From: Rubrobacteraceae bacterium
GTDB taxonomy: Bacteria; Actinomycetota; Rubrobacteria; Rubrobacterales; Rubrobacteraceae
Reading direction: 5' to 3'
Length of the DNA stretch: 34,855 bases
Assembly (NCBI GenBank): GCA_035947015.1
Contig: DASZKL010000277.1
Coordinates: 1-34,855 of the forward strand
Under the pieces are notes generated by a model, which searched no databases, had not been told where the DNA came from, and saw nothing but the letters and a program-made list of their open reading frames with translations. Shown piece by piece: positions 13,306-28,702 of this stretch. The translations under genes were made by a program, and so were the position numbers. The stretch's first letter is position 1; each line of letters starts with the position of its first letter.

Positions 13306-15576
13306 GTGGTGGCTAACCGCAAGCGCGCGCCTAGTAGAAAGCCGCGGAAGAAGGGCTATAGCAGCAGGGGGCCCCGCAGATGGGGCGGGCTTCTATTGCG
13401 GGCACGGGACCGCGCCGGGGAGATAGTGACCCGGGAAGTGGTAGGGGTCGTGCTGCTCGTCGCTGGTGTGTTCTTCAGCGCCGCGTTTCTGAGCGGAAGT
13501 GGGGCGTTTCTGGGAGAGGCGGGCCTCGTTGCGGTGACGCATCTGCTGGGCATAGCCGGTCTCTCTCTAGCTCCGCTCGCCGCGGTCGCTGGCCTACTGC
13601 TCCTTCTGGGGCGCCTGCCTGGCCGCCGAGCACTAGGGGCCGGGCTACTGCTGGTGGCGGGCGCGACGACGCTCACGTCTGCGCTGCCGCGGGAGTTGCG
13701 CTTCTCCAGCGAGTACTACGCAGAGGCCGGGGGCCTTCTCGGGAGCGGTGTCTACGGCGCGGTCCACTGGGCAGGGGGCGCGATCGGGGCGGCGCTTGTA
13801 CTCAGCCTGCTCTACGTTGTAGGTCTCTCTTTGCTCACCGGCGTCAGCCCCGTGTCCGCCTTCGTCGCGGTTAAAGGTTGGGGTGAGGCGCTTCTGGCAT
13901 GGTTGCGTGAGAGACGCAGTTCGGGGAAGAGGCCCGCCGGTGGCGGGGGAGATCGGGGCGAGAAGCGCCGGAGCGAGAAGCGTGGTAGCGAGAAGGCTGG
14001 GGTGCGCGACCTGCACGCGGAGATCGCGGAGCCCCGCGGCGGGGACGGGTTCGCGACTGAGGAGCTCGAGGTGGTGCTGCCGGTGCGCCGGGATGCGGTC
14101 CCGTTCGCCGGGGGGAATGAAGAGATACCTGGGGAGTATGTCCCGCCTTCTCCCTCCGTTTTGAGCTTGGGTCGTGGGGACCCTGAGCACGACGCCGAGG
14201 AGACCAGCCGCAGGCTCACGAAGGCGCTATCGGACCTCGGGGTCGAGGCGCAGGTGGTCAGGGCGGTCGTCGGGCCGCGGGTGACCCGCTACGAGCTTCG
14301 CCTAGGGAGCGGGGTCAAGGTGGGCAAGGTGCGTAACCTCCAGCAGGACATAGCCTACGCTCTGGCTGCGACCGAGGTGCGGATTCTCGCTCCCATCCCG
14401 GGCAAGAGCGCCGTCGGCGTGGAGGTGCCCAACACTAGACCGGCGAAGGTCACCCTTGGCGACGTCTTCCAGGAATATCCTGAGGGCAACGACTGGACGC
14501 TGCCTGTGGGTCTGGGGAAGGACATATCCGGCCGGGCGGTCTTCTTCGACCTCGCCGATATGCCACACCTGCTCGTCGCAGGGACCACAGGCAGCGGCAA
14601 GAGCGTCTTGCTCAACTCACTTCTCACCTCGTTGCTTCTGACTACCGACCCCCGCCAGGTCAAGATGGTGCTCGTAGACCCCAAGAGGGTCGAGCTCACC
14701 CACTTCGCGCGCATCCCGCACCTCATCACCCCGGTGGTCACCGACGTCAAGAAGGCGGCGAACGCGCTCACGTGGGCTGTCTCCGAGATGGAGCGGCGCT
14801 ACGAGGTGCTTGAGAGGACGGGGGCCCGGTCGCTAGAAGGCTACAATGCCAGGAGCGAGACTAACATGCCCTACGTCGTCATCGTCATAGACGAGCTCGC
14901 AGATTTGATGATGGCTGCGGCTGCCAAAGTCGAGGATTCCGTTATCAGGATCGCCCAGAAGGCCAGGGCGGTTGGCCTCCACCTCGTCGTCGCGACCCAG
15001 CGACCCAGCGTGGACGTCATAACCGGCATGATCAAGGCCAACGTCCCTAGCCGCATAGCGTTCGCGGTCTCGAGCCAGGTGGACTCGCGTGTGATCCTGG
15101 ACTCCCCGGGCGCCGAGTCCCTGCTCGGGATGGGCGATATGCTCTTCAAGCCGGTCTCTGCCGCGCGGGCCTCGCGCGTGCAGGGCGCCTTTATCTCCGA
15201 GGAGGAGGTGGAGCGGGTGGTCTCGGCGACGGTCGAGGCGGGCAAGGGGCGTGTAGAGGCTAGCTACGTCGAGGAGGTGACGGAGCCGAAGAACCACCCC
15301 AAAGAGACCGAGGAGCCCGATGATGAACTCCTTCCTGAGGCGGCGAGCTTCGTCGTCGCCACCCAGCAGGCTTCGGTGAGCGCCGTACAGCGGCGTTTCC
15401 GGGTCGGATACTCCAGGGCGGGTAGGATCATCGACGCCCTAGAGCGCAAGGGCGTTGTCGGCCCGTATGAGGGGTCCAAGAGCCGGGCGGTGGTGGCGAC
15501 GGAGATGGAGGTAGAGGCTATCTTCGGCGCGAGCGGCGATGGCTCCGCGACGGAGGATACAGGGCAAGACTGGTAG
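13306..15576 (+). CDS. ftsK: DNA translocase FtsK/SpoIIIE
   Basis: N-terminal transmembrane segments, Arg/Glu-rich linker, motor domain with Walker A GTTGSGKS and Walker B VVIVIDELADL, and gamma winged-helix (..ASVSAVQRRFRVGYSRAGRIIDALERKGVVGP..). Confidence 0.95.
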   Translation: MVANRKRAPSRKPRKKGYSSRGPRRWGGLLLRARDRAGEIVTREVVGVVLLVAGVFFSAAFLSGSGAFLGEAGLVAVTHLLGIAGLSLAPLAAVAGLLLLLGRLPGRRALGAGLLLVAGATTLTSALPRELRFSSEYYAEAGGLLGSGVYGAVHWAGGAIGAALVLSLLYVVGLSLLTGVSPVSAFVAVKGWGEALLAWLRERRSSGKRPAGGGGDRGEKRRSEKRGSEKAGVRDLHAEIAEPRGGDGFATEELEVVLPVRRDAVPFAGGNEEIPGEYVPPSPSVLSLGRGDPEHDAEETSRRLTKALSDLGVEAQVVRAVVGPRVTRYELRLGSGVKVGKVRNLQQDIAYALAATEVRILAPIPGKSAVGVEVPNTRPAKVTLGDVFQEYPEGNDWTLPVGLGKDISGRAVFFDLADMPHLLVAGTTGSGKSVLLNSLLTSLLLTTDPRQVKMVLVDPKRVELTHFARIPHLITPVVTDVKKAANALTWAVSEMERRYEVLERTGARSLEGYNARSETNMPYVVIVIDELADLMMAAAAKVEDSVIRIAQKARAVGLHLVVATQRPSVDVITGMIKANVPSRIAFAVSSQVDSRVILDSPGAESLLGMGDMLFKPVSAARASRVQGAFISEEEVERVVSATVEAGKGRVEASYVEEVTEPKNHPKETEEPDDELLPEAASFVVATQQASVSAVQRRFRVGYSRAGRIIDALERKGVVGPYEGSKSRAVVATEMEVEAIFGASGDGSATEDTGQDW

Positions 15577-15601
15577 CTTTTGTGATACGCTTTTAGGCGT
15601 C

Positions 15602-16477
15602 ATGGACTACGAGCAAGGTACCTTCCAGTCCCTTAACGGCGACGCCAAGATCGGTCAGATCTTGGAGGCGACTCGTAAAGAGAGAGGCCTCACCCTCGAG
15701 GAGGCCGAACACGCCACCAAGATCCGCAAGCGCTACCTCGTCGGCCTCGAGCGCGAGGACTACGGTGCGCTCCCCGACGCCGTCTACGCTCAGGGTTTCC
15801 TAAAGACCTACGCGAATTATCTAGGCCTCGACGGAGATGAGCTCTCGCGCGAGTTCAAAGACCGCAGGAAGCCGAGACGGGAGCGCGGGATCTCCTACGG
15901 CGCGCCTAAGAAGAGCGAGTTCGACCAGCCCCTGATCAACCCCGGCGAGCTGGGTTCGGCTCGGAGGCGCAAGACCGTCTTGGGGACCACGATCCTTACC
16001 TTGCTAGTGGCTCTCCTCGTGCTCGGTGCCGTTGTGGGCGCGTTGTACTACGTGGGACGGGGGGTTCAGATCTCAGGCGAGAATCCCGCTCCTTCCAAGT
16101 CCTCCGAGGGGCGGGCCGCCGATGGCTCGAAGCCCGAGGCCGGAGGAGCGCCCGAGAAGGGCGCACAAGAGGACGCGCCCGGTGAGGGATCCGGTGGCTC
16201 GAACGCGGCCGGGACGGGTGAAGCCGACTCTTTGACCGTCGTGGTGAGCGTCGAAGGGTCAGCCTCGTGGTTGAGTGTCCTCGCCGACGGGACCCTGGCG
16301 TACGAGCAGATCGCGCAGCCAGGCTTCTCGCAGACCTTCGAAGCGCAGCGCGAGATCAGCATAAGGACGGGTAACGCGGGCGCGGTCGGGGTCGAGGTGA
16401 ACGGTCAGGAACTTGGCAAGCTCGGCGAGAGCGGCGAGGTTCTTACCCGGGATTTCACCTTGAAGAGCGCATCCTGA
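15602..16477 (+). CDS. RodZ-like protein (XRE-type HTH, one TM helix, DUF4115-like C-terminal domain)
   Basis: ..IGQILEATRKERGLTLEEAEHATKIRKRYLVGLEREDY.., TM ..TILTLLVALLVLGAVVGALYYV.., C-terminal ..WLSVLADGTLAYEQIAQPGFSQTFEAQREISIRTGNAGAVGVEVNGQ.. ATG 15602 is preferred over ORF-track 15539, which overlaps ftsK. Confidence 0.75.
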   Translation: MDYEQGTFQSLNGDAKIGQILEATRKERGLTLEEAEHATKIRKRYLVGLEREDYGALPDAVYAQGFLKTYANYLGLDGDELSREFKDRRKPRRERGISYGAPKKSEFDQPLINPGELGSARRRKTVLGTTILTLLVALLVLGAVVGALYYVGRGVQISGENPAPSKSSEGRAADGSKPEAGGAPEKGAQEDAPGEGSGGSNAAGTGEADSLTVVVSVEGSASWLSVLADGTLAYEQIAQPGFSQTFEAQREISIRTGNAGAVGVEVNGQELGKLGESGEVLTRDFTLKSAS

Positions 16478-16508
16478 GAACCCGCCCGAAAAGCGCATGA
16501 TATGCTCC

Positions 16509-16537
16509 TTGGGAGCCCGCCCCCCCTACAGTATAAT
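16509..16537 (+). promoter_or_regulatory. Sigma-70-type promoter upstream of recA
   Basis: TTGGGA (16509-16514), 17-nt spacer, TATAAT (16532-16537). About 50 nt upstream of the recA start. Confidence 0.45.
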
Positions 16538-16587
16538 CGTTTGCGGTAGATGCCGATTATTGGCAAGGTCTCTTTTTGGAGGATGCA

Positions 16588-17655
16588 TTGGATAAGAGCA
16601 AGGCCATAGACGCCGCCGTTACGCAGATAGAGCGGCAGTTTGGGAAGGGCTCCATCATGCGCATGGGCGACGAGGGGCCGCGGAAGGTAGCCTCGATCTC
16701 CACGGGCGCCCTGGCCCTCGACCTGGCCCTTGGCGTCGGCGGCGTCCCAAGGGGCCGCATCATCGAGATCTTCGGCCCCGAATCGAGCGGCAAGACCACC
16801 CTCGCATTGCACATCATCGCCGAAGCCCAGAGAGCCGGCGGCCTCGCCGCTTTTGTGGACGCCGAGCACGCCATCGACCCCACCTACGCTAGGGCCATCG
16901 GCGTGGACCTCGAGAACCTCTACTTCTCCCAGCCGGATAACGGCGAACAGGCCCTAGAGATAGCCGATACCCTGGTGCGCTCGGGCGCCCTCGATGTCGT
17001 TGTGATCGACAGTGTAGCCGCGCTCGTACCTCGAGCTGAGATAGAGGGTGAGATGGGAGATTCTCACGTCGGGCTTCAGGCCAGGCTCATGAGCCAGGCT
17101 TTACGCAAGCTCTCGGGCTCTCTCTCGCGCTCAGGCACGACCGCCATCTTCGTCAACCAGCTAAGGGAGAAGATCGGGGTCATGTTCGGTTCGCCGGAGA
17201 CGACACCCGGCGGGCGGGCGCTCAAGTTCTACTCCAGCGTGCGTCTGGACATTCGGCGCATCGGGGCCCTGAAGATCGGCAACGACACGGTCGGCAACCA
17301 GACGCGGGTCAAGATCGTCAAGAACAAGGTAGCGCCACCGTTCAAGACTGTGGAGTTCGACATAATGTACGGCGAGGGCATCTCCAAGGAGGGGAGCCTG
17401 CTCGACATCGGCATCGAACACGACGTGATCCAGAAGTCGGGCGCCTGGTTTGCCTATGGCGACGAGCGCATCGGCCAGGGTCGCGAGAACGCGAAGCAGT
17501 TCTTGAAGGAGAACGACGAGGTGCGCGAGCAGATCCTCAGCGACCTCTACGGGAAGCTCGGCCTAGGGAACAAGCCTTCGCCTGACACTCAGGAGGAGGA
17601 AGAGGAGGAGTCTCCAGAGCAGCGCCCCGTGGAGCCGGCCGAGCAGATCCTCTAG
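16588..17655 (+). CDS. recA: Recombinase RecA
   Basis: ..[16 protein letters not shown].., Walker [10 protein letters not shown], ..FVDAEHA.., acidic C-terminal tail. TTG 16588 lies 5 nt after GGAGG (16578-16582). In-frame TTG 16576 (ORF track) overlaps that Shine-Dalgarno. No intein. Confidence 0.97.
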
Positions 17656-17661
17656 TACCCA

Positions 17662-18282
17662 ATGCCCGAGATAACGGGCGTGCGGGAGCGCCGGGGCAAG
17701 GCGCGTATATTCGTCGACGGCGAGTACTGGGCTGAGATAGACGCAGGGGTAGCGGTGGAGCGCGGCCTTCGCGAGGGGGCTGCGCTCAGTCGCGAGGAAC
17801 TCGACGAGGCACGGATAGCGGGTGAGAGGGCGCTCGCCATGAGCCGCGCGCTCGACTTCTTGGGGTACCGTGCCAGGTCCGAGAAGGAGGTCCGCGACAG
17901 GCTTCGGCGCTACCGCTACGGCGAGGAGACTGCCGAAGGCGTGATCGGTCGCCTCAAGGAGCTTGGTTACCTCGACGATGAGGACTTCGCCCGTCTTGTT
18001 GTGCGCGAGAAGGCGCGCAGGTATGGCCCGAGGCGGGTCTCGGCCGAGCTGCGCAGGAGCGGTGTGGACGCCGAGATCGTGCGCGAGGTGGTAGATGAGG
18101 AGTTCGCCGACCGCTCCGAGCTAGAGGAGGCTCGATCTGTCGCCGCACAGCGGTATAATAGGGGAGGATCCTACGCCGAAGCGCGCAGGGTCTACGGATT
18201 CCTGGTGCGCCGGGGGTACTCGGTTGAGGTGTGCGCCGAGATAGCACGCGAGTACCGAGAGGCTTCAGGGGCCGAAGAATAG
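17662..18282 (+). CDS. recX: Recombination regulator RecX
   Basis: Immediately downstream of recA. Helical-repeat sequence typical of RecX (..ALDFLGYRARSEKEVRDRLRR.., ..VIGRLKELGYLDDEDFAR..). Confidence 0.88.
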   Translation: MPEITGVRERRGKARIFVDGEYWAEIDAGVAVERGLREGAALSREELDEARIAGERALAMSRALDFLGYRARSEKEVRDRLRRYRYGEETAEGVIGRLKELGYLDDEDFARLVVREKARRYGPRRVSAELRRSGVDAEIVREVVDEEFADRSELEEARSVAAQRYNRGGSYAEARRVYGFLVRRGYSVEVCAEIAREYREASGAEE

Positions 18283-18335
18283 ACAAGAGAGCTTGATACC
18301 GGCCCGCTGCGTTTGGGCCCGTTGGAGGAAAACTC

Positions 18336-19880
18336 GTGAATGTTCTGTTGCTGGTCCTGGACCTGGCCGTAGGGCTCGCCGTCGGCACGGTCTTGGGCTT
18401 TCTGCTTTGTAGGTCGCGACTGGGGACCCGTCAAGCCCAGGCGCGCGCGGACGCGCGCACTATCATCGAGGATGCCAACCGCGCCGCAGAGACGACGCGC
18501 CGCGAGGCTGAGCTTGAGGCTAAGGAGGCAGCGTTACGCATTAAGGATGAGGCCGAGGCCGAGGCGCGAGCCCGTCGCGCGGAGATCACCCGCATCGAGG
18601 AACGCCTCGACAACCGCGACACCGCCCTCGACAGTCGCGAGGAAGAACTCGATGAACGCCGCCGGCGGCTCTCGGAAACCGAGGAGACGCTGCGGCGCAA
18701 AGAAGATGAGCTGAAGTCCATTGAGGCGGAGCACCTGAGGGCCTTGGAGGAGGTCTCGGGCCTCACCAGGGACGAGGCAGAGTCGAGGCTCTTCGCGGGG
18801 CTCGAGGTGGAGTTAGAGGACCAGCTCGGACGCCTCGTGCGCGACCGCACGATGGAGGCCGAGGAGAGGGCGGACTCGGAGGCGCGCCGCATCGTCTCCA
18901 CCACGATGGAGCGGATCGCCTCGGACCTCACCTCCGAATCGACGGTGAAGGCGATCGCGCTCCCCTCCGACGACATGAAGGGCCGCATAATAGGGCGGGA
19001 GGGGAGAAACATCCGCGCGTTCGAGGCCGCAACCGGCGTCGACGTGATCATAGACGACACCCCAGAGACTGTTGTCATCTCATGCTTCGACCCCGTAAGG
19101 CGCGAAGTGGCGCGCGTGGCGATGGAGCAGCTCGTGCAGGACGGCAGGATCCACCCCGGCCGCATAGAGCAGATCGTCTCAAAGGCGAAGAAGGACGTCG
19201 AGAAGGAGATGAAAGCGGCGGGACGCCAGGCACTCTACGACGCCAAGATCTCCGGCGGCATGCACGGGGACCTCCTGCGGCTCCTCGGGGCGCTGAAGTA
19301 CCGCACCTCCTACGGCCAGAACGTGCTCTCCCACTCGGTCGAGGTCGCCAACCTCTGCGGCATGATGGCCCAGGAGCTCGGAGCCAACGTCAAGGTCGCC
19401 CGCCGCGCGGCGTTGCTTCACGACGTTGGCAAGGCCATAGACCACGAGGTCGAGGGAACGCACGCCTTGATCGGCGGCCGCTTCGCCAAGAAGAGCGGGG
19501 AATCCGACGACGTGGTCCGTGCCATAAGCGCCCACCACCACGAGATCGAGATGGAGACCGTCGAGGACGTGCTCGTCGCCACCGCCGACGCCGTCTCGGC
19601 ATCCCGACCCGGCGCCAGGCGCGAGACTACCGAGATCTACCTCGAAAGGTTGCGCTCTCTCGAGGATATCGCCCTCGGCCACCGCGGCGTAGACAAGGCA
19701 TACGCCATCCAGGCCGGTCGGGAGATTCGGGTCATGGTCCAGCCCTCCGAGGTCGACGACCGCATCGCGGCCAAGCTCGCCTACGACATCTCCAAGCAGA
19801 TAGAGAGCGACCTCGAGTACCCCGGCCAGATCAAGGTAACCGTCATCCGTGAGAGCCGCGTGAGCGAGGTTGCCAGGTAA
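18336..19880 (+). CDS. rny: Ribonuclease Y
   Basis: N-terminal TM helix, Glu/Arg-rich coiled coil, KH domain (..GRIIGREGRNIRAFEAATGVDVIIDD..), HD domain (..AALLHDVGKA..). GGAGGA lies 6 nt before the GTG. Confidence 0.95.
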   Translation: MNVLLLVLDLAVGLAVGTVLGFLLCRSRLGTRQAQARADARTIIEDANRAAETTRREAELEAKEAALRIKDEAEAEARARRAEITRIEERLDNRDTALDSREEELDERRRRLSETEETLRRKEDELKSIEAEHLRALEEVSGLTRDEAESRLFAGLEVELEDQLGRLVRDRTMEAEERADSEARRIVSTTMERIASDLTSESTVKAIALPSDDMKGRIIGREGRNIRAFEAATGVDVIIDDTPETVVISCFDPVRREVARVAMEQLVQDGRIHPGRIEQIVSKAKKDVEKEMKAAGRQALYDAKISGGMHGDLLRLLGALKYRTSYGQNVLSHSVEVANLCGMMAQELGANVKVARRAALLHDVGKAIDHEVEGTHALIGGRFAKKSGESDDVVRAISAHHHEIEMETVEDVLVATADAVSASRPGARRETTEIYLERLRSLEDIALGHRGVDKAYAIQAGREIRVMVQPSEVDDRIAAKLAYDISKQIESDLEYPGQIKVTVIRESRVSEVAR

Positions 19881-19892
19881 GGGGAACCTCAG

Positions 19893-20798
19893 GTGGAAGG
19901 TCCCTACCGCGACCTCGGATCCGGCTTCGCCCGCCTCACGGGCCCCGAAGGGGCACGCCGCGGACCCTCGCGCCTCCACTACGTCGAGGACGCCCTCCTC
20001 GAACTCCTGCGCAACGCCCGAGACGCCGGCGCTCGCAGCGTCTTCGTCGCCTCCAGCCTGAAAAACCGCCGCTACCGTACCCTGACCGTCCTCGACGACG
20101 GGCACGGCTTCCCGGATACCCACACCGCCCTGATCTTCGAGCCAGGCGTGACAACCCGCCACCTTAGCCCCGTCCTCGACGACACAGACAAAGCCCCGCA
20201 CGGCGCGGGCCTCTCGCTCTACCACATCAAGAACGCCGCCGTCAGCGCCGAAGTCCTCTCAACCTCCTCTCCCACCTCCATTAAGGTAACGTTCGATACC
20301 CACACCCTCCCCGAACGCGCCCTGCAGTCCCCCTCCCGCCCCTCCCACACGAACCTCCTCGCCACCCTCCAGAACTTCTCCTCAAGAGATATAAGCCTCT
20401 ACTACGCCTCCCCCGCACGTATCCTCGCTACCCTTCTAAATAACCACATAATACCCTGGCCGCCTACGAGAGGCGAGCTGGGGGAGAGGGCAACGGCGCT
20501 GGGTCTCGAGGTCTCTCTGAGGACGGCGCAGAGGGTGTGGAGTGGCGAGATTTCACCTGTCGGCCGCGTCGCCGACGAGGAGGGGAGGGCGGTGAGGTCG
20601 GAGAGCGTGAGGGGAAGGGGAGTGGGCGATGGGCCGGTGCTCGTGATCGGTGAGGAGGACGAGCGTGGCATCGCGGATATACTTAGGCGGGCGGCGAGGG
20701 CTGGCTACCTGGAGTTGGGGGAGGTCGAGCTCCGGAGCCGTCCGGGAGAGATCTCTGTGAGAGCCCGCATCTACGAGCCGGAGGACGAGTATGAGTGA
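19893..20798 (+). CDS. Uncharacterised GHKL-superfamily (MutL/HATPase_c_3-like) ATP-binding protein
   Basis: N-box ELLRNARDAGA, G1 box VLDDGHGF, G2-like HGAGLSLYHIKN, then about 170 aa with no motif I recognise. GTG 19893 lies 7 nt after AAGGGGA. Its stop overlaps the miaB ATG by 8 nt. Confidence 0.7.
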   Translation: MEGPYRDLGSGFARLTGPEGARRGPSRLHYVEDALLELLRNARDAGARSVFVASSLKNRRYRTLTVLDDGHGFPDTHTALIFEPGVTTRHLSPVLDDTDKAPHGAGLSLYHIKNAAVSAEVLSTSSPTSIKVTFDTHTLPERALQSPSRPSHTNLLATLQNFSSRDISLYYASPARILATLLNNHIIPWPPTRGELGERATALGLEVSLRTAQRVWSGEISPVGRVADEEGRAVRSESVRGRGVGDGPVLVIGEEDERGIADILRRAARAGYLELGEVELRSRPGEISVRARIYEPEDEYE

Positions 20799-22140
20799 CG
20801 CCGCAGGGACACCACCGACCGTGGCCCCGATACAGCTCTCCAGAAAGCTGCGTGGGGGCTTGGGAGCCCCCGGCGCTTCGGAGGGCACGAAGACCGCGTG
20901 CATACGTACCTTCGGCTGCCAGATGAACGTACACGACTCCGACCGTATGCGGCGCATGATCCTGGACGCTGGCTACGCTGAGGTCCATGCATATGAGGAG
21001 GCCGACCTCGTCATCCTCAACACCTGCTACGTGCGCGAGAACGCCGTTGACCGCGTCCGCGGCCATCTCGGGGAACTCAACCGCCTCCGCAGAGAGGGCC
21101 GCGTCAAGAAAATAGCCCTTACCGGTTGCATCGGCGCCTCCGACGAATCCTCAGAACTCCAGCGCCGCTACGGTATAGATCTCGTCCTGGGCACGCATAA
21201 TACATATGAGCTCGCGGAGTTCGTCGGGCTCCCGACGATGCGGGAAGCTTACACGCCAGATCTGCCCGGCACGGAAGGCGAGCACAGCGCGTTCATCACG
21301 ATCATGACGGGGTGCAACTACCAGTGCAGCTACTGCATCGTGCCGACGGTGAGGGGGCGCATGATCTGCCGTCCGATGGCGAACGTTTTGGAAGAGATCG
21401 AGAGGCTGGTTGAGAGCGGGACCGGCTACGTAACGCTTCTAGGGCAGACGGTGGACGCGTGGAGGCATGAGGGCAAGCGGTTCTGTGACCTGCTTGAGGC
21501 TGTAGCCGAGCGGGCCCCGCGCGTGTGGTTCACGACCAGCCATCCCTCTAACATGGAGGATCGTACGCTGAGGCTCATCGGGGAGAAGGAGACCATCGTA
21601 AAGCGGCTGCACCTCCCCGTGCAGTCAGGCTCCGATCGGATGCTCCGGCTCATGCACCGCGGTTACAAGGCGGAACGGTACCGGCGCAAGATCGAGGTTT
21701 TCAGGGAATCGGTCCCTGATGGAACGCTTAGCACCGACATAATTGTCGGCCACCCCAAGGAGACGGAGGAGGACCACGAACAGACCCTCAAGCTTGTCGA
21801 GGACTGTGGCTTCGACTCAGCCTACATCTTCAAGTTCTCCCCGAGAAAGGGGACAGAGGCTGCGGAGCTGGAAGGCACCGTACCCGCGGATGTCGTGGGA
21901 CGTCGTTTTCTCGAGGTGCTAAGGGCCGTGGAACATAACGCCTTCGCGCGCAACCAGCGCAAGGTCGGGGCCACTGAGGAGGTGTACGTCCGGCACGGGA
22001 GCACCGAAGACGGCAGGGCCATAGGCGAGACGTGGAGCGGGCACGCGGTGCACGTGGGTACGAGCGCCGCGCCCGGTCAATACGTGAAGGCCAGGATAAA
22101 GTCCGCGGGACCACACGTGTTGTACGCCGAGGAAGCCTGA
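20791..22140 (+). CDS. miaB: tRNA-i6A37 methylthiotransferase MiaB
   Basis: UPF0004 domain (..IRTFGCQMNVHDSDRM..), radical-SAM motif GCNYQCSYCIVP, C-terminal TRAM-like region. Confidence 0.93.
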   Translation: MSDAAGTPPTVAPIQLSRKLRGGLGAPGASEGTKTACIRTFGCQMNVHDSDRMRRMILDAGYAEVHAYEEADLVILNTCYVRENAVDRVRGHLGELNRLRREGRVKKIALTGCIGASDESSELQRRYGIDLVLGTHNTYELAEFVGLPTMREAYTPDLPGTEGEHSAFITIMTGCNYQCSYCIVPTVRGRMICRPMANVLEEIERLVESGTGYVTLLGQTVDAWRHEGKRFCDLLEAVAERAPRVWFTTSHPSNMEDRTLRLIGEKETIVKRLHLPVQSGSDRMLRLMHRGYKAERYRRKIEVFRESVPDGTLSTDIIVGHPKETEEDHEQTLKLVEDCGFDSAYIFKFSPRKGTEAAELEGTVPADVVGRRFLEVLRAVEHNAFARNQRKVGATEEVYVRHGSTEDGRAIGETWSGHAVHVGTSAAPGQYVKARIKSAGPHVLYAEEA

Positions 22141-23009
22141 CGGACGCCCAAAGAAAGAAGGCTCTCGTCGTTTGCGGGCCGACGGCGAGCGGGAAGAGCG
22201 AGCTCTCGGACGCGCTGGCAGAGGAACTGAGCGCTGCGCACGGCTGCCACGTTCCCACCCTGATAGTCGACTCCATGCAGGTGTACCGGGAGATCCCTAA
22301 GATAACCAACCAGGCTAGGCGGCGCCCAGCCGAGCTCGCCGGTATCGTCTCCGTCACGAAAGATTGGACCGTCGCCCGCCACAGGGTGCGCGCCGAAGAG
22401 ATAATAGCTGGGCTGGATGTACCGTTCGTTCTCGATGCCGGAACCGGGATGTACCTCAACGCGATACTGCTCGATATCCCCCTCGCACCCAAGGTTGAGG
22501 CCGGCACCAGATCTCTCGCGCAGGAGATCACAGCCGGCGCGTCCAACCCGCGGCGCGCTTCGAGGGCGAAGGAGTTAGAGCTCGCTGGCGCCCCCGACCG
22601 GGACTCGATTTGGGACGGGGCTCTCCGCTACGACGCGACCGTGATCTACCTGCGCCCCAAGAGGGAAGCACTCGACACCGCTATAGCGAACCGGTCGCAA
22701 AAGATAGTGCGCGAAGGCCTCGAAGAAGCGGCCAAACTCAGAGGGCTCCTCGAATCAGGCGCGAGGGTCAACGCATCGGTCAGGGACGCTATCGGTGTGC
22801 GAGAGCTGCTCGACCACCTATATGGAGAGACGACCATTGAGGCAGCAGAGAACCGGGTCGCCACACGGACGCGACAGTTGGCGCGGCGCCAGACCCGGTG
22901 GTTCGACAAACTCTGCCGCACCCTTGGGGCACGCGCCGATATTACGGTCGCCGAAGGCCCGGTCGAAATCGATCTCTTGAATTATATGCATGGTAGAATA
23001 GGCACATGA
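22137..23009 (+). CDS. miaA: tRNA dimethylallyltransferase MiaA
   Basis: P-loop ..VVCGPTASGKSELS.. and ..DSMQVYREIPKITN.. The expected N-terminus begins at CTG 22137, which overlaps the miaB stop (CTGA) and follows GAGGAAG. The only canonical in-frame start (GTG 22032) would overlap miaB by 109 nt and add 35 Arg-rich residues. Confidence 0.9.
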   Translation: MTDAQRKKALVVCGPTASGKSELSDALAEELSAAHGCHVPTLIVDSMQVYREIPKITNQARRRPAELAGIVSVTKDWTVARHRVRAEEIIAGLDVPFVLDAGTGMYLNAILLDIPLAPKVEAGTRSLAQEITAGASNPRRASRAKELELAGAPDRDSIWDGALRYDATVIYLRPKREALDTAIANRSQKIVREGLEEAAKLRGLLESGARVNASVRDAIGVRELLDHLYGETTIEAAENRVATRTRQLARRQTRWFDKLCRTLGARADITVAEGPVEIDLLNYMHGRIGT

Positions 23010-24250
23010 GAGAAGAGAGAGCAATTCTGGTGGGGGCCGGGGGGGCGCGCCACATGGCCGAGCTTGGGAGGCTGGCCACCACGCTTGGCATGGAGGTCGC
23101 GGGTGTCCTGGAGCAGGGCCGCATGGACGGGACCGGCTATCTGGGTCGCGGCAAGCGCGATGAGCTCCGCGCCCTCGTGGAGAGGCTCGGGGCACAGTTC
23201 GTGGTCGCAGACGACGAGCTCACGGCTTCGCAAGCGAGGGTGCTAGAAGGGTCTGCAGGGGCTGCGGTTGTGGACAGGACGGAGTTGATCATCCGCATAT
23301 TCGAGGCGCACGCCAGGGACGCCGCCAGCCGCCTCGAAGTGGAGCTTGCGGACCTCGAGTATCGACTGCCAAGGGTGAAGGGGAGAAGCCCGGAGTTGAG
23401 CCGCCTGGGGGGTGGTGGGGTCACGACCAGGGGTCCCGGTGAGCAGCAACTCGAGTACGACCGGCGCGCGATCCGCAGGCGGATGGAGACCATAAACCGC
23501 AAGCTCCAGGAGGAGAAGGCCGCGCGGGGGGTACGCGGGGCGAGGCTCAAGAAGGAAGGTCCGCCCACCGTCGCTCTTGTAGGCTACACGAACGCGGGCA
23601 AGACGACGATCCTGAACGCGTTGAGCGGGGCGGGTAGGTCCACGAAGGACAAGCTCTTCGAGACACTCGAGACAACGACGCGGCTTGTCGAGGGGAAGAG
23701 TGGCGACGGGCGCAACGGTGCGCGACCGGACTTCGTGGTGACGGACACGGTGGGATTCATTCGGAAGCTCCCCACACAGCTCGTCCACTCCTTCGCCTCG
23801 ACGCTAGAGGCGACGCACGACGCGGACGTGAAGGTACTTTGCGCCGACGCCTCGAGCGCAGAGCTCGAGGAGGAGATAGGGACTGTAGCACGGACCCTCT
23901 CCGAGACTCTCGGCAACGGATCGGATCCGGGGTCCACGATACTCTGCCTCAACAAAATGGACCTCGTCTCCGAGGAGCGTGAGGGGGAGCTCAGGCGGGA
24001 CTACCCCGGGGCTGTGATGATAAGCGCCCTCCTGGATGGTTGCGATGCGCTGCTGGAGGAGATCTACCGCACCATAGCCTCCGGGCGAGAGAGGATGGAG
24101 GTCCTGATCCCTCACGCCGAGTACGCGGCGGCGAGCCGCCTCTACGGCACGGCCGAGATCCACGCCCAGGAAGATAGGGAAGCCGGCCTGTGGATGGACG
24201 TGAGCCTGCCGCGCTCGGCCTCGGCGAAATACGCCCCATACAGAGTTTGA
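23006..24250 (+). CDS. hflX: GTPase HflX
   Basis: HflX N-domain plus G-motifs GYTNAGKTTILNAL, TDTVGF, NKMD. The ATG overlaps the miaA stop (ATGA). Confidence 0.93.
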   Translation: MREERAILVGAGGARHMAELGRLATTLGMEVAGVLEQGRMDGTGYLGRGKRDELRALVERLGAQFVVADDELTASQARVLEGSAGAAVVDRTELIIRIFEAHARDAASRLEVELADLEYRLPRVKGRSPELSRLGGGGVTTRGPGEQQLEYDRRAIRRRMETINRKLQEEKAARGVRGARLKKEGPPTVALVGYTNAGKTTILNALSGAGRSTKDKLFETLETTTRLVEGKSGDGRNGARPDFVVTDTVGFIRKLPTQLVHSFASTLEATHDADVKVLCADASSAELEEEIGTVARTLSETLGNGSDPGSTILCLNKMDLVSEEREGELRRDYPGAVMISALLDGCDALLEEIYRTIASGRERMEVLIPHAEYAAASRLYGTAEIHAQEDREAGLWMDVSLPRSASAKYAPYRV

Positions 24251-25020
24251 CGGAGGAGATAATCAGGCTATACCCGCTACCTGCGCAGGCGCTCGCAGCG
24301 GGAGGCATATACGAAGACCTGGAACTTCCGCCTCCGGGCCAAAGAGACCCCTCGAGACCTTATGTGATCATGAACATGGTCATCACCTTGGACGGCAGGA
24401 CCGCCGTAGAGGGCAGGTCCTCCCGAATCGGGAGCTCTACCGACCGCCAGACGATGCGAACGCTCCGCTCCAAAGCGGACGCCGTGATGATCGGGGCCGG
24501 CACCCTACGCGCCGAGAAGCTCTCCCTCGGGCTCGACGATCCCGCCGGGCGGCATCCCCTGGCCCTTATAGTCACGAACTCGGGGAATATCCCGCTCGAG
24601 AGCAACCTCATCGTCCCAGAAGGGCAGGAGATTATGGTGATAACTAGGGAGGGCGCCACCTTCAGCTATGGCGATCAGCGCGTGCTCTGCGTCTCCGCAG
24701 ACACTGACGGCAACCTCGACCTCCGAGAGGCGCTGGAGGTTCTCAAATCCCAGATGACCGTAGGGCTCCTCCTCGTCGAGGGCGGCCCGAGGCTGAGCTA
24801 TTCCCTTATCTCCCAGAACCTCGCCGACGAACTCTTTCTGACCCTCGCCCCGAAGCTGCTAGGCGGGCCCGTCGCCGAGAGCCGGGCTATCCTCAACGGC
24901 CCGTACCTGCCGCCGCAAGACGTCGGCCTCCTCTCTGCACACCTCGCCGGCGAGGAGCTCTTTCTCAGATACGACCTGCGCCCACCCCACGCGCATGGCA
25001 ACAGAGCGAAAAACACATAA
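24247..25020 (+). CDS. RibD_C / dihydrofolate-reductase-like family reductase
   Basis: ..YVIMNMVITLDGRTAVEGRSSRIGSSTDRQTMRTLRSKADAVMIGAGTLRAEK.., ..LLLVEGGPRLSYSLI.. TTG 24247 overlaps the hflX stop (TTGA). The ORF-track start at 24190 lies inside hflX. Confidence 0.8.
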   Translation: MTEEIIRLYPLPAQALAAGGIYEDLELPPPGQRDPSRPYVIMNMVITLDGRTAVEGRSSRIGSSTDRQTMRTLRSKADAVMIGAGTLRAEKLSLGLDDPAGRHPLALIVTNSGNIPLESNLIVPEGQEIMVITREGATFSYGDQRVLCVSADTDGNLDLREALEVLKSQMTVGLLLVEGGPRLSYSLISQNLADELFLTLAPKLLGGPVAESRAILNGPYLPPQDVGLLSAHLAGEELFLRYDLRPPHAHGNRAKNT

Positions 25021-25093: not shown

Positions 25094-25125
25094 AAAAAGC
25101 TCTCCTGCCGCAAGAGCGGCAGAGC
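25094..25125 (-). terminator. Rho-independent terminator read on the minus strand
   Basis: Minus strand reads GCTCTGCCGC-tctt-GCGGCAGgAGAGC, followed by TTTTT. The core 7-bp GC stem is CTGCCGC/GCGGCAG (plus-strand coordinates 25105-25122). There is no T-tract in the plus-strand direction. Confidence 0.55.
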
Positions 25126-25402
25126 AGCCTAGATTGTCCTGTGCCAGGCGTGGGACCATTGCGTGGGGCATTGTTTGCCTCAGCAGTCCTGCAACCGGGT
25201 AAATCGTTTCCTCCTGCTCAAGCGCACACCCAGACGCAGCGCAGTAACTAGATTTCCGCCATGGTGAGCTCCAGTGCAGACACTCTCCCTGGCGAGGAGA
25301 CTACCGTACCTGCTAGGAAACGGCGGGATCTAGGTGCAAGATCGTAGATCTCATCGACCAGTTCTGTGAGCGGAGTCGGTAGATCACGTGCACACAGTAT
25401 GA

Positions 25403-25430
25403 ACTTCCGAGAATTCCCGTTATGCGAAGT
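25403..25430 (+). other. Candidate dif (Xer chromosome-dimer-resolution) site
   Basis: ACTTCCGAGAA-TTCCCG-TTATGCGAAGT has the 11-6-11 dif architecture. Against B. subtilis dif as I recall it (ACTTCCTAGAA-TATATA-TTATGTAAACT), the left arm matches 10/11 and the right arm 8/11. The right arm is also 8/11 to the E. coli XerD arm TTATGTTAAAT. The central hexamer is atypically GC-rich. Confidence 0.5.
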
Positions 25431-25743
25431 TCATCGGAATCGCACAGCCCTTCACGCACTATATTTCTGAAATAGGGCTCCTAAGATCACGCTAGGCCCG
25501 CAATGTGCATGTCCAGAGCCTCAGCACTAGTACTTGTAAGAGTAGTGTCCTTACAACCCAACGAAGTTCTCCCTCGAAGACCGGTTGCCTTCGGGCCAGC
25601 CACGCTATTCTCCCTACTCCCAAACCTTCCCCGATCTGCTACGATACCTGTGCGAGAGCTGATCTGCGCTGGCCTAAGTGTGTGCCTACTTCTTAGCTCT
25701 GCGTATGCGTTAGTTGCCACCGTAATGTGCGAAGGAGAACGAA

Positions 25744-26697
25744 CTACAGGGGGAGCGTATTATATTGATATGCTCTGGTGGCGAGCTCTTCGGCGCGCCT
25801 GATGTAGCGCATTGTGGTCTTTGGGTCGGAGTGGCCAAGGAACTGCTGGATGACGAGCAGAGGTGCTTCGTTCATAGCCATGTTGGTGCCGACGGTGTGC
25901 CGGATCGAGTGCGGGGAGATGGCCTTGGTTATGCCGGCGGCGCGGACGTACTTCTTGACTATGTTCTGTACGGAGCGGGTTGTTAGGGGTTTGTCCTTAC
26001 CGACCCTGGAGACAAAAAGGGGCTTGCGGGCGTCGAGGTGGGAGTTGAAGCTGCGACCCGAGAGGAAGACGAACTTCTGGACGAGTCGCCAGAGCTCCGG
26101 CGAGAGCGGGACGTTCCGGATCTTGTCCCCCTTCCCACGGATGCGCAGAAGGACCTGGTCGTTGCCCGCCTCCTGGAAGTCCCCGACACGGATGTCTACA
26201 ACCTCGGCTTCGCGCAGTCCGCCCCCTGCCGTAACGGCCAGGAGCACGTAGTCGCGGTAGTTGGCGGCGCGCGCCGCGCTCAGCATGCGCGAGAGCTCGT
26301 CCTCCGTGAGGACGTTGTAGGAAGAGTCCTGGCGCACTCTAGGGCTCTTGGCGAAGAACCGCAGGGCTTCGGGGTTCACGGCGGTGGCGCCGGCCATGTA
26401 GGTGAAGATCAAGAACCGCCGCAACACAGCGAGCTTCTTCGCCGCCGTAGCCGCCGAGTACGTCTTTATCAAGTGCTCCCGATAGAGAGAGATGTCCTCC
26501 GCGGTGATCCCCCCCAACCCCTTCCCTATCTTCTTCCCTATATAAGTGACGAACATGCGAAGCTCCGTATTATAGGTTTTTATAGTCTGAGGGCTGGTGA
26601 GGGTGCGCAAGTAGACGGCGATGAGGCGTTCGGCATCGACGGGGTAAGCAGGGTGTGTCTCTCCCAGGGGTTCGGGGAGGTTATTGGGCTGGGTCAT
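25744..26697 (-). CDS. Tyrosine site-specific recombinase (XerC/XerD-like / phage-integrase family)
   Basis: N-terminal SAM-like core-binding region (..TSPQTIKTYNTELRMFVTYI..). Catalytic residues are all present: R in GGLREAEV, K in RGKGDKIRNVPL, HxxR in HSIRHT, H/Y in LGHSDPKTTMRYI. GC is lower than neighbours (34/60 in 25801-25860). ATG 26697 is preferred; GTG 26748 is possible. Both overlap the apt 3' end. Confidence 0.88.
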   Translation of the reverse strand: MTQPNNLPEPLGETHPAYPVDAERLIAVYLRTLTSPQTIKTYNTELRMFVTYIGKKIGKGLGGITAEDISLYREHLIKTYSAATAAKKLAVLRRFLIFTYMAGATAVNPEALRFFAKSPRVRQDSSYNVLTEDELSRMLSAARAANYRDYVLLAVTAGGGLREAEVVDIRVGDFQEAGNDQVLLRIRGKGDKIRNVPLSPELWRLVQKFVFLSGRSFNSHLDARKPLFVSRVGKDKPLTTRSVQNIVKKYVRAAGITKAISPHSIRHTVGTNMAMNEAPLLVIQQFLGHSDPKTTMRYIRRAEELATRAYQYNTLPL

Positions 26698-27985: not shown

Positions 27986-28438
27986 CTAGGCGAACACGAA
28001 CTTGAACCGATACTTGCCAATCTGGATCTCGTCGCCGTTGCGCAGATCGACCGCATCCACCCTCACCCGGTTGACGTAGGTCCCGTTGAGACTCCCGACG
28101 TCGCGTATCCTGTAGCCATGGTCGCCGCGCTCGATCTCTGCGTGCTTCCTGGAGACGGTGACGTCGTCGAGGAATATGTCGCTCTCGGGGCCGCGCCCTA
28201 CGGTGATTGTCTCCTCCCCGATGTCGTGCATCCGCCTGCCCGCGGTGCCCTCAACCTGGTCGAGCTCTATGAGCGACGCCCCATCGCTTGCGACCGCCGG
28301 AGGTGCCTCATCCCCCTCCTCTTCGAAGGCAGGTGCGTACGAAGCCGTGGTCTGCCCCTGATCCAACTTCGTCCCGCACTCGGAGCAGAACTTCATCGTC
28401 GGGGTGACCTCGGCGCCGCAATTGGGACAGACTTTCAC
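27986..28438 (-). CDS. Zinc-ribbon plus FHA-domain protein
   Basis: N-terminal CPNCG..x11..CSECG zinc ribbon. C-terminal FHA domain (..TVGRGPESDIFLDDVTVSRKHAEIERGDHGYRIRDVGSLNGTYVN..). GTG start overlaps the upstream stop (GTGA). Confidence 0.88.
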   Translation of the reverse strand: MKVCPNCGAEVTPTMKFCSECGTKLDQGQTTASYAPAFEEEGDEAPPAVASDGASLIELDQVEGTAGRRMHDIGEETITVGRGPESDIFLDDVTVSRKHAEIERGDHGYRIRDVGSLNGTYVNRVRVDAVDLRNGDEIQIGKYRFKFVFA

Positions 28439-28695
28439 TGGCCTCCCTCTTCGCCCAGCAACACGCGCGCCAGCTCCTCTGGCGAGAGGGCGACCGAGCC
28501 CCGGCGGACGAGTTCGGCCCGCATGAGGTTTATCCTGCCTCGCAGAAGCTCCCTCCTGTAGCTCACGGCCCGCTCCTCCTCCACCAATCCCCCGAGCGTG
28601 TCTCTGAGCTCCTCCTCGGACAGAGCGGTGAGGTCCTCGGCGCTCTCCCAGTCGAAGCTACCAGTCTCCCCCCTCGTCCCGCCGTGCTCACTCAT
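28435..28695 (-). CDS. Small acidic coiled-coil protein, possibly RsiG-family-like
   Basis: An 86-88 aa helical protein (..LSEEELRDTLGGLVEEERAVSYRRELLRGRINLMRAELVRRG..). It contains E-x3-S-x2-R-x3-R-x3-N, resembling the RsiG c-di-GMP motif E-x3-S-x2-R-x3-Q-x3-D. ATG 28695 is preferred over TTG 28701 because a TATACT -10 ends 7 nt upstream of the ATG. Confidence 0.6.
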   Translation of the reverse strand: MSEHGGTRGETGSFDWESAEDLTALSEEELRDTLGGLVEEERAVSYRRELLRGRINLMRAELVRRGSVALSPEELARVLLGEEGGQ

Positions 28696-28702
28696 AAGCA
28701 AG

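Follow-up and report, generated by a model that had tools for sequence, protein, structure and literature searches.

A 34-bp element lying between two convergent gene blocks on contig DASZKL010000277.1 of a Rubrobacteraceae bacterium (assembly GCA_035947015.1, positions 1 to 34,855, hereafter the window) appears to be the chromosomal dif site of the Rubrobacteraceae. The element spans 25400-25433, with a 28-bp core at 25403-25430, and would be recombined by the Xer-like tyrosine recombinase encoded next to it, a single recombinase species being favoured; judging from the sequence data, we assign a probability of roughly 0.6 to this reading. The computational analysis demonstrated the architecture of the site, its conservation, its single-copy occurrence, its linkage to the xer gene, its mid-chromosome position, the catalytic residues of the recombinase and the presence of an FtsK with a gamma domain, and the interpretation of the 28-mer as dif is supported.

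Rereading of the window letters located the 11-6-11 layout of the original prediction exactly where it had been placed, with the two 11-bp arms ACTTCCGAGAA and TTATGCGAAGT flanking the hexamer TTCCCG (Table 1). The outer 9-bp inverted repeat which had been described is likewise perfect, ATGAACTTC (25399-25407) being the exact reverse complement of GAAGTTCAT (25426-25434). It should be noted that chance alone would give a few 9-bp inverted repeats spaced in this way in 35 kb, and the repeat is uninformative by itself.

The original prediction also compared the arms with known dif sites. The Bacillus subtilis sequence used for this purpose is correct (ACTTCCTAGAATATATATTATGTAAACT in the supplement of Kono et al., 2011), and the degrees of identity claimed on its basis were reproduced: the left arm is identical to the XerC arm of B. 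subtilis dif at 10 of 11 positions, and the right arm to the XerD arms of B. subtilis and E. coli at 8 of 11 positions each. Taken together, the arms match those of B. subtilis and Moorella dif at 18 of 22 positions, which is the single best match in the window (4 mismatches, the next best having 8), and an equal dif-arm match was found in none of 300 simulated Markov-1 windows. Moreover, the site's own pattern, with up to three mismatches allowed, occurs once in the window and in none of 100 shuffles. Similarity of the arms to E. coli, Frankia and Mycobacterium tuberculosis dif (7-9 mismatches in 22) was not beyond chance in the window.

While the count of identities in the right arm stands, the description of this arm as XerD-like turned out to be uninformative, because the reverse-complemented arm, ACTTCGCATAA, matches the XerC arm of Haemophilus ducreyi dif at every position; for the same reason, both arms can be considered XerC-like. 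The right arm departs from the canonical XerD arm TTATGTnAAnT and is not accompanied by an AT-rich centre, and the relatives show TTACCGG, TTATCGG or TTATACG in its place. The GC-rich centre pointed out in the original prediction is indeed present, but is not disqualifying, given the centres GCGACA and GCGGTA of the predicted dif sites of M. tuberculosis and Acidimicrobium, respectively.

Conservation was examined in 80 metagenome loci fetched via the recombinase protein, along with other loci (recombinase identity 75-87%), and the variation statistics refer to 64 distinct sites from orthologous loci. The 28-mer is strongly kept in these relatives, as had been required of a genuine site, while the flanks cannot be aligned, and BLAST matches between loci span merely ~36-45 bp around the site. 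Information content is near-maximal (~1-2 bits per position) from position -2 to position +31 of the 28-mer and ~0 outside; therefore, the functional unit is 34 bp long, three bases per side more than the 28-mer, with the consensus YSA-ACTTCCGAGAA-TTCCCG-TTATGCGAAGT-TSR. All the loci reaching the RibD_C gene have exactly one site, and those with no site stop short of that gene. A 2089-bp contig labelled as a Pyrinomonadaceae metagenome-assembled genome (MAG; locus L097) contains an exact Rubrobacter-type site with the typical flanking bases, and is probably a mis-binned Rubrobacteraceae contig.

The natural variants also reveal the internal organization of the site. Arm positions 1-5, 8, 10 and 11 are dyad-symmetric in 60-64 of the 64 sites, and positions 2 and 27 covary, the pair being C2/G27 in 59 sites and T2/A27 in 5. 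Positions 9 and 20 are asymmetric without exception (64/64), with G at position 9 of the left arm and T in the right arm, and arm positions 6-7 differ between the arms in 52 sites. Positions 4-6 of the right arm were seen as TGC, CCG, TCG, TAC and TGA, and in 11 sites these three positions mirror the left arm (TTATCGG). The centre is little varied (TTCCCG, TTACCG, TCCCCG, TTCCCA, TTACAC, TTTCAC, TGTCAA).

When the region 25311-25512 was compared with contigs of four soil metagenome runs, the unitigs broke at the site, with a 2-8 fold rise in word depth and several left flanks. The breaks and the rise fit a 34-mer common to co-occurring Rubrobacteraceae species and are no evidence of recombination. 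One low-depth metagenome contig joins 25433 straight to 25745, so that the site comes right after the xer stop codon.

For the assessment of copy number, the degenerate pattern AYTTCCGAGAATNNCNNTTAYNNGAAR was run against 185,579 species genomes, with ~2 hits estimated by chance. Of the 54 hits obtained, 33 came from as many different assemblies classified as Rubrobacter, Rubrobacteraceae or unclassified Actinomycetota, and all 33 share the neighbourhood hflX - RibD_C gene - site - xer. Multiple occurrence, which the original prediction had named as refuting, was not observed: the site is found once in the window, once in each of the 33 assemblies and once in the R. marinus chromosome. The sole complete chromosome among the hits is that of R. 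marinus SCSIO 52915 (4,156,492 bp), where the site is at 2,115,939, i.e. at 50.9% of the record, a position which fits the terminus if the record begins near oriC. Genes are on the + strand on the low-coordinate side of this site, and on the - strand on the other.

The recombinase gene ends 314 bp from the site, and gene-site linkage holds in every locus extending far enough. The protein has the two-domain architecture of Xer recombinases, with a SAM-like N-terminal domain and a catalytic one, and alignment with E. coli XerD showed that the catalytic residues R, K, H-x-x-R, H and Y are all intact. Nevertheless, the protein falls below the cut-offs of all the Xer equivalog models: the best NCBIfam match is the XerA model NF040815 (150.4 bits, cut-off 220), followed by the XerC model TIGR02224 (142.7 bits, cut-off 335), the XerD model TIGR02225 (139 bits, cut-off 330) and the XerS model (76 bits, cut-off 267). 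XerA proteins in the PDB align to it about as well as E. coli XerD does, and the match to the XerH chain 5jjv is weak (31.7 bits) and confined to the catalytic region, the length of the protein also lying outside the ~355-362 aa of XerH-like recombinases.

The orthologues of the recombinase are 317-321 aa long. Hundreds of close homologues exist (83-98% identity among the best 120), nearly all metagenomic, and the exact protein was found only on soil-metagenome contigs of 32 kb or less. The clade is an isolated one, as it forms one 50%-identity cluster among 1.84 billion representative proteins, of which only 46 match the recombinase at E <= 1e-30. The nearest full-length relative, P0145, is 43% identical and belongs to a mobile-element-like locus with no similar site, a context which says nothing about the function of the recombinase; the ten closest outside relatives score below all the Xer equivalog cut-offs. 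The housekeeping operon context (ftsR-apt-xer) places the gene outside any mobile element. An overlap of 17 bp (26681-26697) between the start of xer and the end of apt, which is also present in loci L001 and L003, suggests co-transcription and translational coupling of xer with the purine-salvage gene.

A gene for FtsK with a gamma domain is located 10 kb from the site, and its product is a candidate activator and positioner of recombination. The mechanism we propose is as follows. Homologous recombination would join sister chromosomes into a dimer, and the two copies of the site would meet at the closing septum, where the neighbouring Xer-like recombinase would bind both dyad-symmetric arms of each. 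Four subunits would form a synapse, and strands would be exchanged across the 6-bp centre via a Holliday junction to give two monomers; FtsK, which has a gamma domain here, would probably deliver the sites and trigger the reaction. The conserved asymmetry at position 9, together with the asymmetric centre, may set the order of strand exchange, just as arm asymmetry fixes this order in XerS and XerH systems (PMC5357621). That the recombinase binds the site, where it cleaves, that the reaction depends on FtsK and resolves dimers, and that there is no partner recombinase, is all inferred from the features described above.

The action of a single recombinase species on both arms, as in XerS/difSL and XerH/difH, is favoured but unproven. 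It is favoured because the outer arm positions are identical and covary, because both arms resemble XerC-type arms, because the gene is linked to the site, and because there are hints in the literature that canonical Xer is absent from the class. As for the linkage, it is considered a likely hallmark of the single-recombinase XerS and XerH systems (review PMC5357621). As for the literature, a preprint (10.1101/542381) reports that Rubrobacteria have no member of its Xer subgroup, for which simple recombinases specific to the class may stand in, and the dif table of Kono et al. (2011), which lists only genomes with XerCD orthologues, does not include Rubrobacter. No paper linking Rubrobacter with a dif site was found in the literature searched. 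The stronger proposal, namely that Rubrobacteria possess a lineage-specific, previously undescribed single-recombinase Xer system, in which this isolated clade would need no partner to recombine a gene-linked 34-bp dif that has two XerC-type arms and a conserved GC-rich centre, is a tentative one, to which we give slightly less than an even chance.

The site could also be a dif worked by the classical pair, with a diverged XerC or XerD encoded by the adjacent gene and a partner, encoded elsewhere, that would bind the other arm. XerC plus XerD is what most bacteria use, other Actinobacteria included (PMC5357621), and no more than 35 kb of the genome is contained in the window. In addition, the arms do differ at the strictly conserved positions 9/20 and, in most sites, at positions 6-7, and JGI pipelines name the protein 'XerD'; this source label is the generic 'integrase/recombinase XerD', and nothing else was found there. 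On the other hand, scores of 139-150 bits against cut-offs of 220-335 for XerA, XerC and XerD show no preference among the three, and the failure of the ten closest full-length outside relatives to reach any cut-off points the same way. Furthermore, it is precisely the outer arm positions, which usually separate XerC from XerD binding, that are identical and covary here, and the close gene-site linkage, typical of single-recombinase systems (PMC5357621), and the hints that Rubrobacteria have no canonical Xer (preprint 10.1101/542381; Kono et al., 2011) also speak against a classical pair. We therefore regard this alternative as unlikely.

Several observations weigh against a dif site served by its neighbouring recombinase. 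A GC-rich centre that is conserved is not typical of dif. The point of gene convergence is close to the site but does not coincide with it, because a FemAB-like or other gene lies between the site and xer in many relatives. The 50.9% figure argues for a terminus location only on the assumption that the R. marinus record starts near oriC, and the flip of GC skew at the site, considered as a proof of the terminus, had to be discarded, because coding-strand composition wholly accounts for it; on either side, the coding strand has a negative third-position skew, which gives no independent support. The covariation to T2/A27 may be a single evolutionary event. As to the literature, the published version of the preprint 10.1101/542381 does not name Rubrobacteria. 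Finally, the orientation of the site with respect to its flanks is reversed in one clade, which includes R. marinus and R. taiwanensis, and in another single contig.

The clade in question is the ATTTCC...GGAAAY clade (L116:3939-3965, R. marinus; L115:401-427, R. taiwanensis; L136, L070, L082 and L102), and the single contig belongs to the main clade (L059:1495-1522); the order of the flanking genes is the same where visible. In E. coli, the orientation of dif is not critical for its function.

Among the known systems, XerS/difSL of streptococci and lactococci also combines a chromosomal site linked to the gene of its own Xer-like recombinase with the presence of FtsK; difSL is near the terminus, as the present site probably is. 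The arms of difSL are imperfect inverted repeats, and its left half, TTTCCGAAAA, resembles A(C/T)TTCCGAGAA of the present site (PMC5357621). However, difSL has 31 bp with an 11-bp centre, as opposed to the 11-6-11 layout within a 34-bp block found here; XerS is ~356 aa long, as opposed to 317 aa for the present recombinase, which scores 76 bits with the XerS model; and the xerS gene is immediately adjacent to its site, whereas in the Rubrobacteraceae the distance ranges from 65 bp to >3.6 kb. The XerC/XerD-dif systems (CodV/RipX-dif in B. subtilis, and those of Proteobacteria) share with the present one the 28-bp 11-6-11 site, the single copy, the mid-chromosome position and FtsK-gamma. The present one is set apart by a recombinase below the equivalog cut-offs, a conserved, GC-rich centre, the XerC-like character of both arms and the linkage between gene and site. 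In XerH/difH of Helicobacter and Campylobacter and in archaeal XerA/dif, near-palindromic arms are recombined by one simple tyrosine recombinase, and difH is near xerH (PMC5357621), which may be compared with the linkage observed here; the arm sequences are different, though, and the present protein is below the XerA cut-off and only a weak match to XerH. XerA, moreover, is archaeal and reported to be FtsK-independent.

The dif sites predicted in the same phylum (Kono et al., 2011) include those of Frankia (CACGCCGATAA-TGCACA-TTATGTCAAGT) and Acidimicrobium (..GCCGAGAA-GCGGTA-TTCTGTCAAGT), with which the present site has in common CCGA(G/T)AA in the inner left arm and ..AAGT at the right end. 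GC-rich centres also occur among them (Acidimicrobium; M. tuberculosis, GCGACA), while the overall similarity of the arms to those of Frankia and M. tuberculosis dif (7 mismatches in 22) is not above chance. A different kind of resemblance is that to plasmid multimer-resolution modules with Cre/loxP organization, in which a recombinase gene likewise stands beside a dyad-symmetric core. Cores of the Methylobacterium type share ACTTCCGAGAAT..C..TTATCGGAAG with the present site, but their recombinase is ~27% identical, lies next to parA and occurs in more than one copy per genome, whereas here a single copy per genome is located in a conserved housekeeping region of the chromosome.

Modules of the latter kind emerged from the pattern scan, where most of the hits outside Rubrobacter are non-random, and several are more palindromic than the pattern demands. 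A core ACTTCCGAGAAT..C..TTATCGGAAGY is found 40-670 bp from the gene of a different Xer-like recombinase (~27% identical to that of the window and below all the Xer cut-offs), which adjoins parA, on Methylobacterium plasmid-type contigs, one of them labelled as a plasmid, and in a Chitinophagaceae MAG. Examples are L094:4414-4440, L103:1708-1734, L128:4445-4471, L100:2285-2311 and L089:2298-2324, in addition to other Methylobacterium loci, and Methylobacterium sp. E-065 has two copies of the module. They look like an undescribed plasmid multimer-resolution module, and the parallel independently shows that this type of core travels with simple tyrosine recombinases and that such cores are recombinase targets. 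Six alphaproteobacterial MAG hits (L098, L111, L114, L121, L129 and L131) had no tyrosine recombinase detected within 8 kb; their sites are near-palindromic and of the same type, e.g. TTTACTTCCGAGAATGACGATTATCGGAAGTCAT.

These modules are also relevant to the possibility that recombination at the element serves another purpose: it could be an attB hot spot at which mobile elements integrate, or a domesticated resolvase of plasmid or other element origin, unrelated to chromosome dimers, could act on it. Plasmid-like contigs have the same core type together with recombinase-parA modules, a mobile-element context is found for the nearest relative (43% identity) of the recombinase, and the interval between xer and the site is variable in length (65 bp to >3.6 kb) and content. 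In many species it contains a FemAB-like gene and elsewhere major facilitator superfamily (MFS), ABC-transporter, UDP-glucose-dehydrogenase-like, HNH or Crp-family genes (examples of variable intervals are L023:3964-6008, L087:2270-5705, L001:6976-7524 and L003:7171-7875). The species of the window has none of these cargo genes, and no remnant of them was detected in the intergenic DNA of the window. However, no second or degenerate site flanks the interval when up to 6 arm mismatches are allowed, no element junctions were seen among the compared loci, and the cargo consists of ordinary chromosomal genes, the commonest of which, FemAB_like (PF04339, ~380 aa), is itself conserved, with 72-94% identity among the loci having it; the lack of a second site and the ordinary cargo led us to reject an IMEX-like insertion as well. 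In addition, xer overlaps apt within a conserved housekeeping gene order, and variation in cargo does not speak against dif, as known dif sites are themselves integration hot spots (PMC5357621); a hot spot of this kind agrees with a dif site and does not compete with it. A site with such a role is therefore improbable.

Even less probable is a palindrome unrelated to recombination (a Ter/RTP-like or terminus-organizing site, an operator bound by a transcription factor, or an RNA structure such as a hairpin or terminator), which would agree with the dyad symmetry, the location at a probable terminus and at the 3' end of a gene, and the minus-strand RNA fold, slightly better than that of shuffles (z = -2.2, a weak fold), but is opposed by the lack of a T-run and of any terminator- or promoter-like match, a separate hairpin being present at 25099-25123, by the conservation of the 'loop' (inner arms and centre) to the same degree as the 'stem', which fits a protein site and not an RNA hairpin, by the multiple copies per genome of Ter and matS-type sites as against a single one here, and by negative Rfam and tRNA searches, and which leaves the 11-6-11 layout, the dif-arm match and the constant linkage to a tyrosine recombinase unexplained.

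Other candidates for the region were rejected. A phage attP beside a phage integrase was discarded in view of the absence of any phage DNA match and of the housekeeping neighbours (miaB, miaA, hflX, apt, ftsR, der, cmk, recA, ftsK); a non-coding RNA or tRNA in the intergenic gap, as Rfam and ARAGORN gave no match; and a terminator or operator at 25399-25434, as no terminator-like, promoter-like or other consensus was matched there and the fold is weak.

Table 1. Position of the putative dif site and of associated features in the window
Feature	Position	Strand	Basis or remarks
Full conserved 34-bp element, TGA-ACTTCCGAGAA-TTCCCG-TTATGCGAAGT-TCA	25400-25433	.	Information content of 64 distinct sites
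Left arm, ACTTCCGAGAA	25403-25413	+	Family-invariant apart from C2->T
Central region, TTCCCG, presumed region of strand exchange	25414-25419	+	Boundaries deduced from the 11-6-11 model
Right arm, TTATGCGAAGT (reverse complement ACTTCGCATAA)	25420-25430	+	Positions 4-6 variable
Xer-like 'simple' tyrosine recombinase, 317 aa	25744-26697	-	Pfam Phage_int_SAM_1 and Phage_integrase; reading frame extendable to 26748
RibD_C-type reductase gene	24190-25020	+	Last gene of the left block
DNA translocase FtsK	13306-15576	+	Pfam FtsK_alpha, FtsK_SpoIIIE and FtsK_gamma (89 bits); NCBIfam FtsK

The window is part of the chromosome of an uncultured soil bacterium and has ~64% GC, and the convergence region described in the original prediction was recovered: all the genes of the window left of the site are on the + strand and all those right of it on the - strand, the site being inside a gap of 723 bp with 55% GC. 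The + strand block, up to 25020, contains pnp, an M16 peptidase gene, the gene of RNase J, ftsK, a RodZ-like gene, recA, recX, rny, miaB, miaA and hflX before the RibD_C gene. The - strand block, from 25744, opens with the tyrosine recombinase gene, apt, ftsR and the gene of an FHA protein, followed by a nucleotidyltransferase/phosphomutase fusion and, further on, by a CDP-alcohol phosphatidyltransferase gene, der, an acyltransferase gene, cmk and aroA. The order on orthologous contigs is der ... FHA - ftsR - apt - xer - [variable] - RibD_C gene - hflX - miaA - miaB, and in the relatives the site is typically found 7-60 bp past the stop codon of the RibD_C gene.

Some further features of the region deserve mention. 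The GC-rich hairpin at 25099-25123, located ~80 bp past the RibD_C stop codon, is terminator-like; its run of T is on the minus strand (a run of A on the plus strand), and it may serve the two convergent blocks as a bidirectional terminator. The genes ftsK, RodZ-like, recA, recX, rny, miaB, miaA and hflX (13306-24250) all lie no more than ~12 kb from the putative dif, and the division regulator ftsR and the FHA/zinc-ribbon protein are encoded beyond it, an unusual clustering of recombination and division genes at the presumed terminus. At 28435-28701 (- strand), between the nucleotidyltransferase fusion and the FHA gene, there is an 88-aa open reading frame where L001 and L003 have an anti-sigma-like gene of the RsiG family (PF22802).

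Chromosome dimer resolution is near-universal, and Rubrobacteria are among the few bacterial classes reported to have no recognizable Xer (preprint 10.1101/542381). The present results provide a concrete candidate site and a candidate enzyme for this class, with 64 natural variants which define the site at base resolution. The Rubrobacteraceae probably possess a lineage-specific, single-recombinase Xer-like/dif module, undescribed in the literature searched. If this is true, XerS, XerH and XerA would be joined by another, independent single-recombinase solution, and the recombinase-parA modules of Proteobacteria and Bacteroidota would hint at an exchange between plasmid resolution and chromosomal dif.

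From a practical point of view, the site could be used as a terminus marker for Rubrobacteraceae MAGs. Cassettes based on dif and Xer are employed for marker excision in other bacteria, and the present module might become such a tool for the radiation- and desiccation-tolerant Rubrobacteraceae. Finally, with its two XerC-like arms and one strictly conserved asymmetric position, the site would offer a natural case for the study of how one recombinase orders strand exchange.

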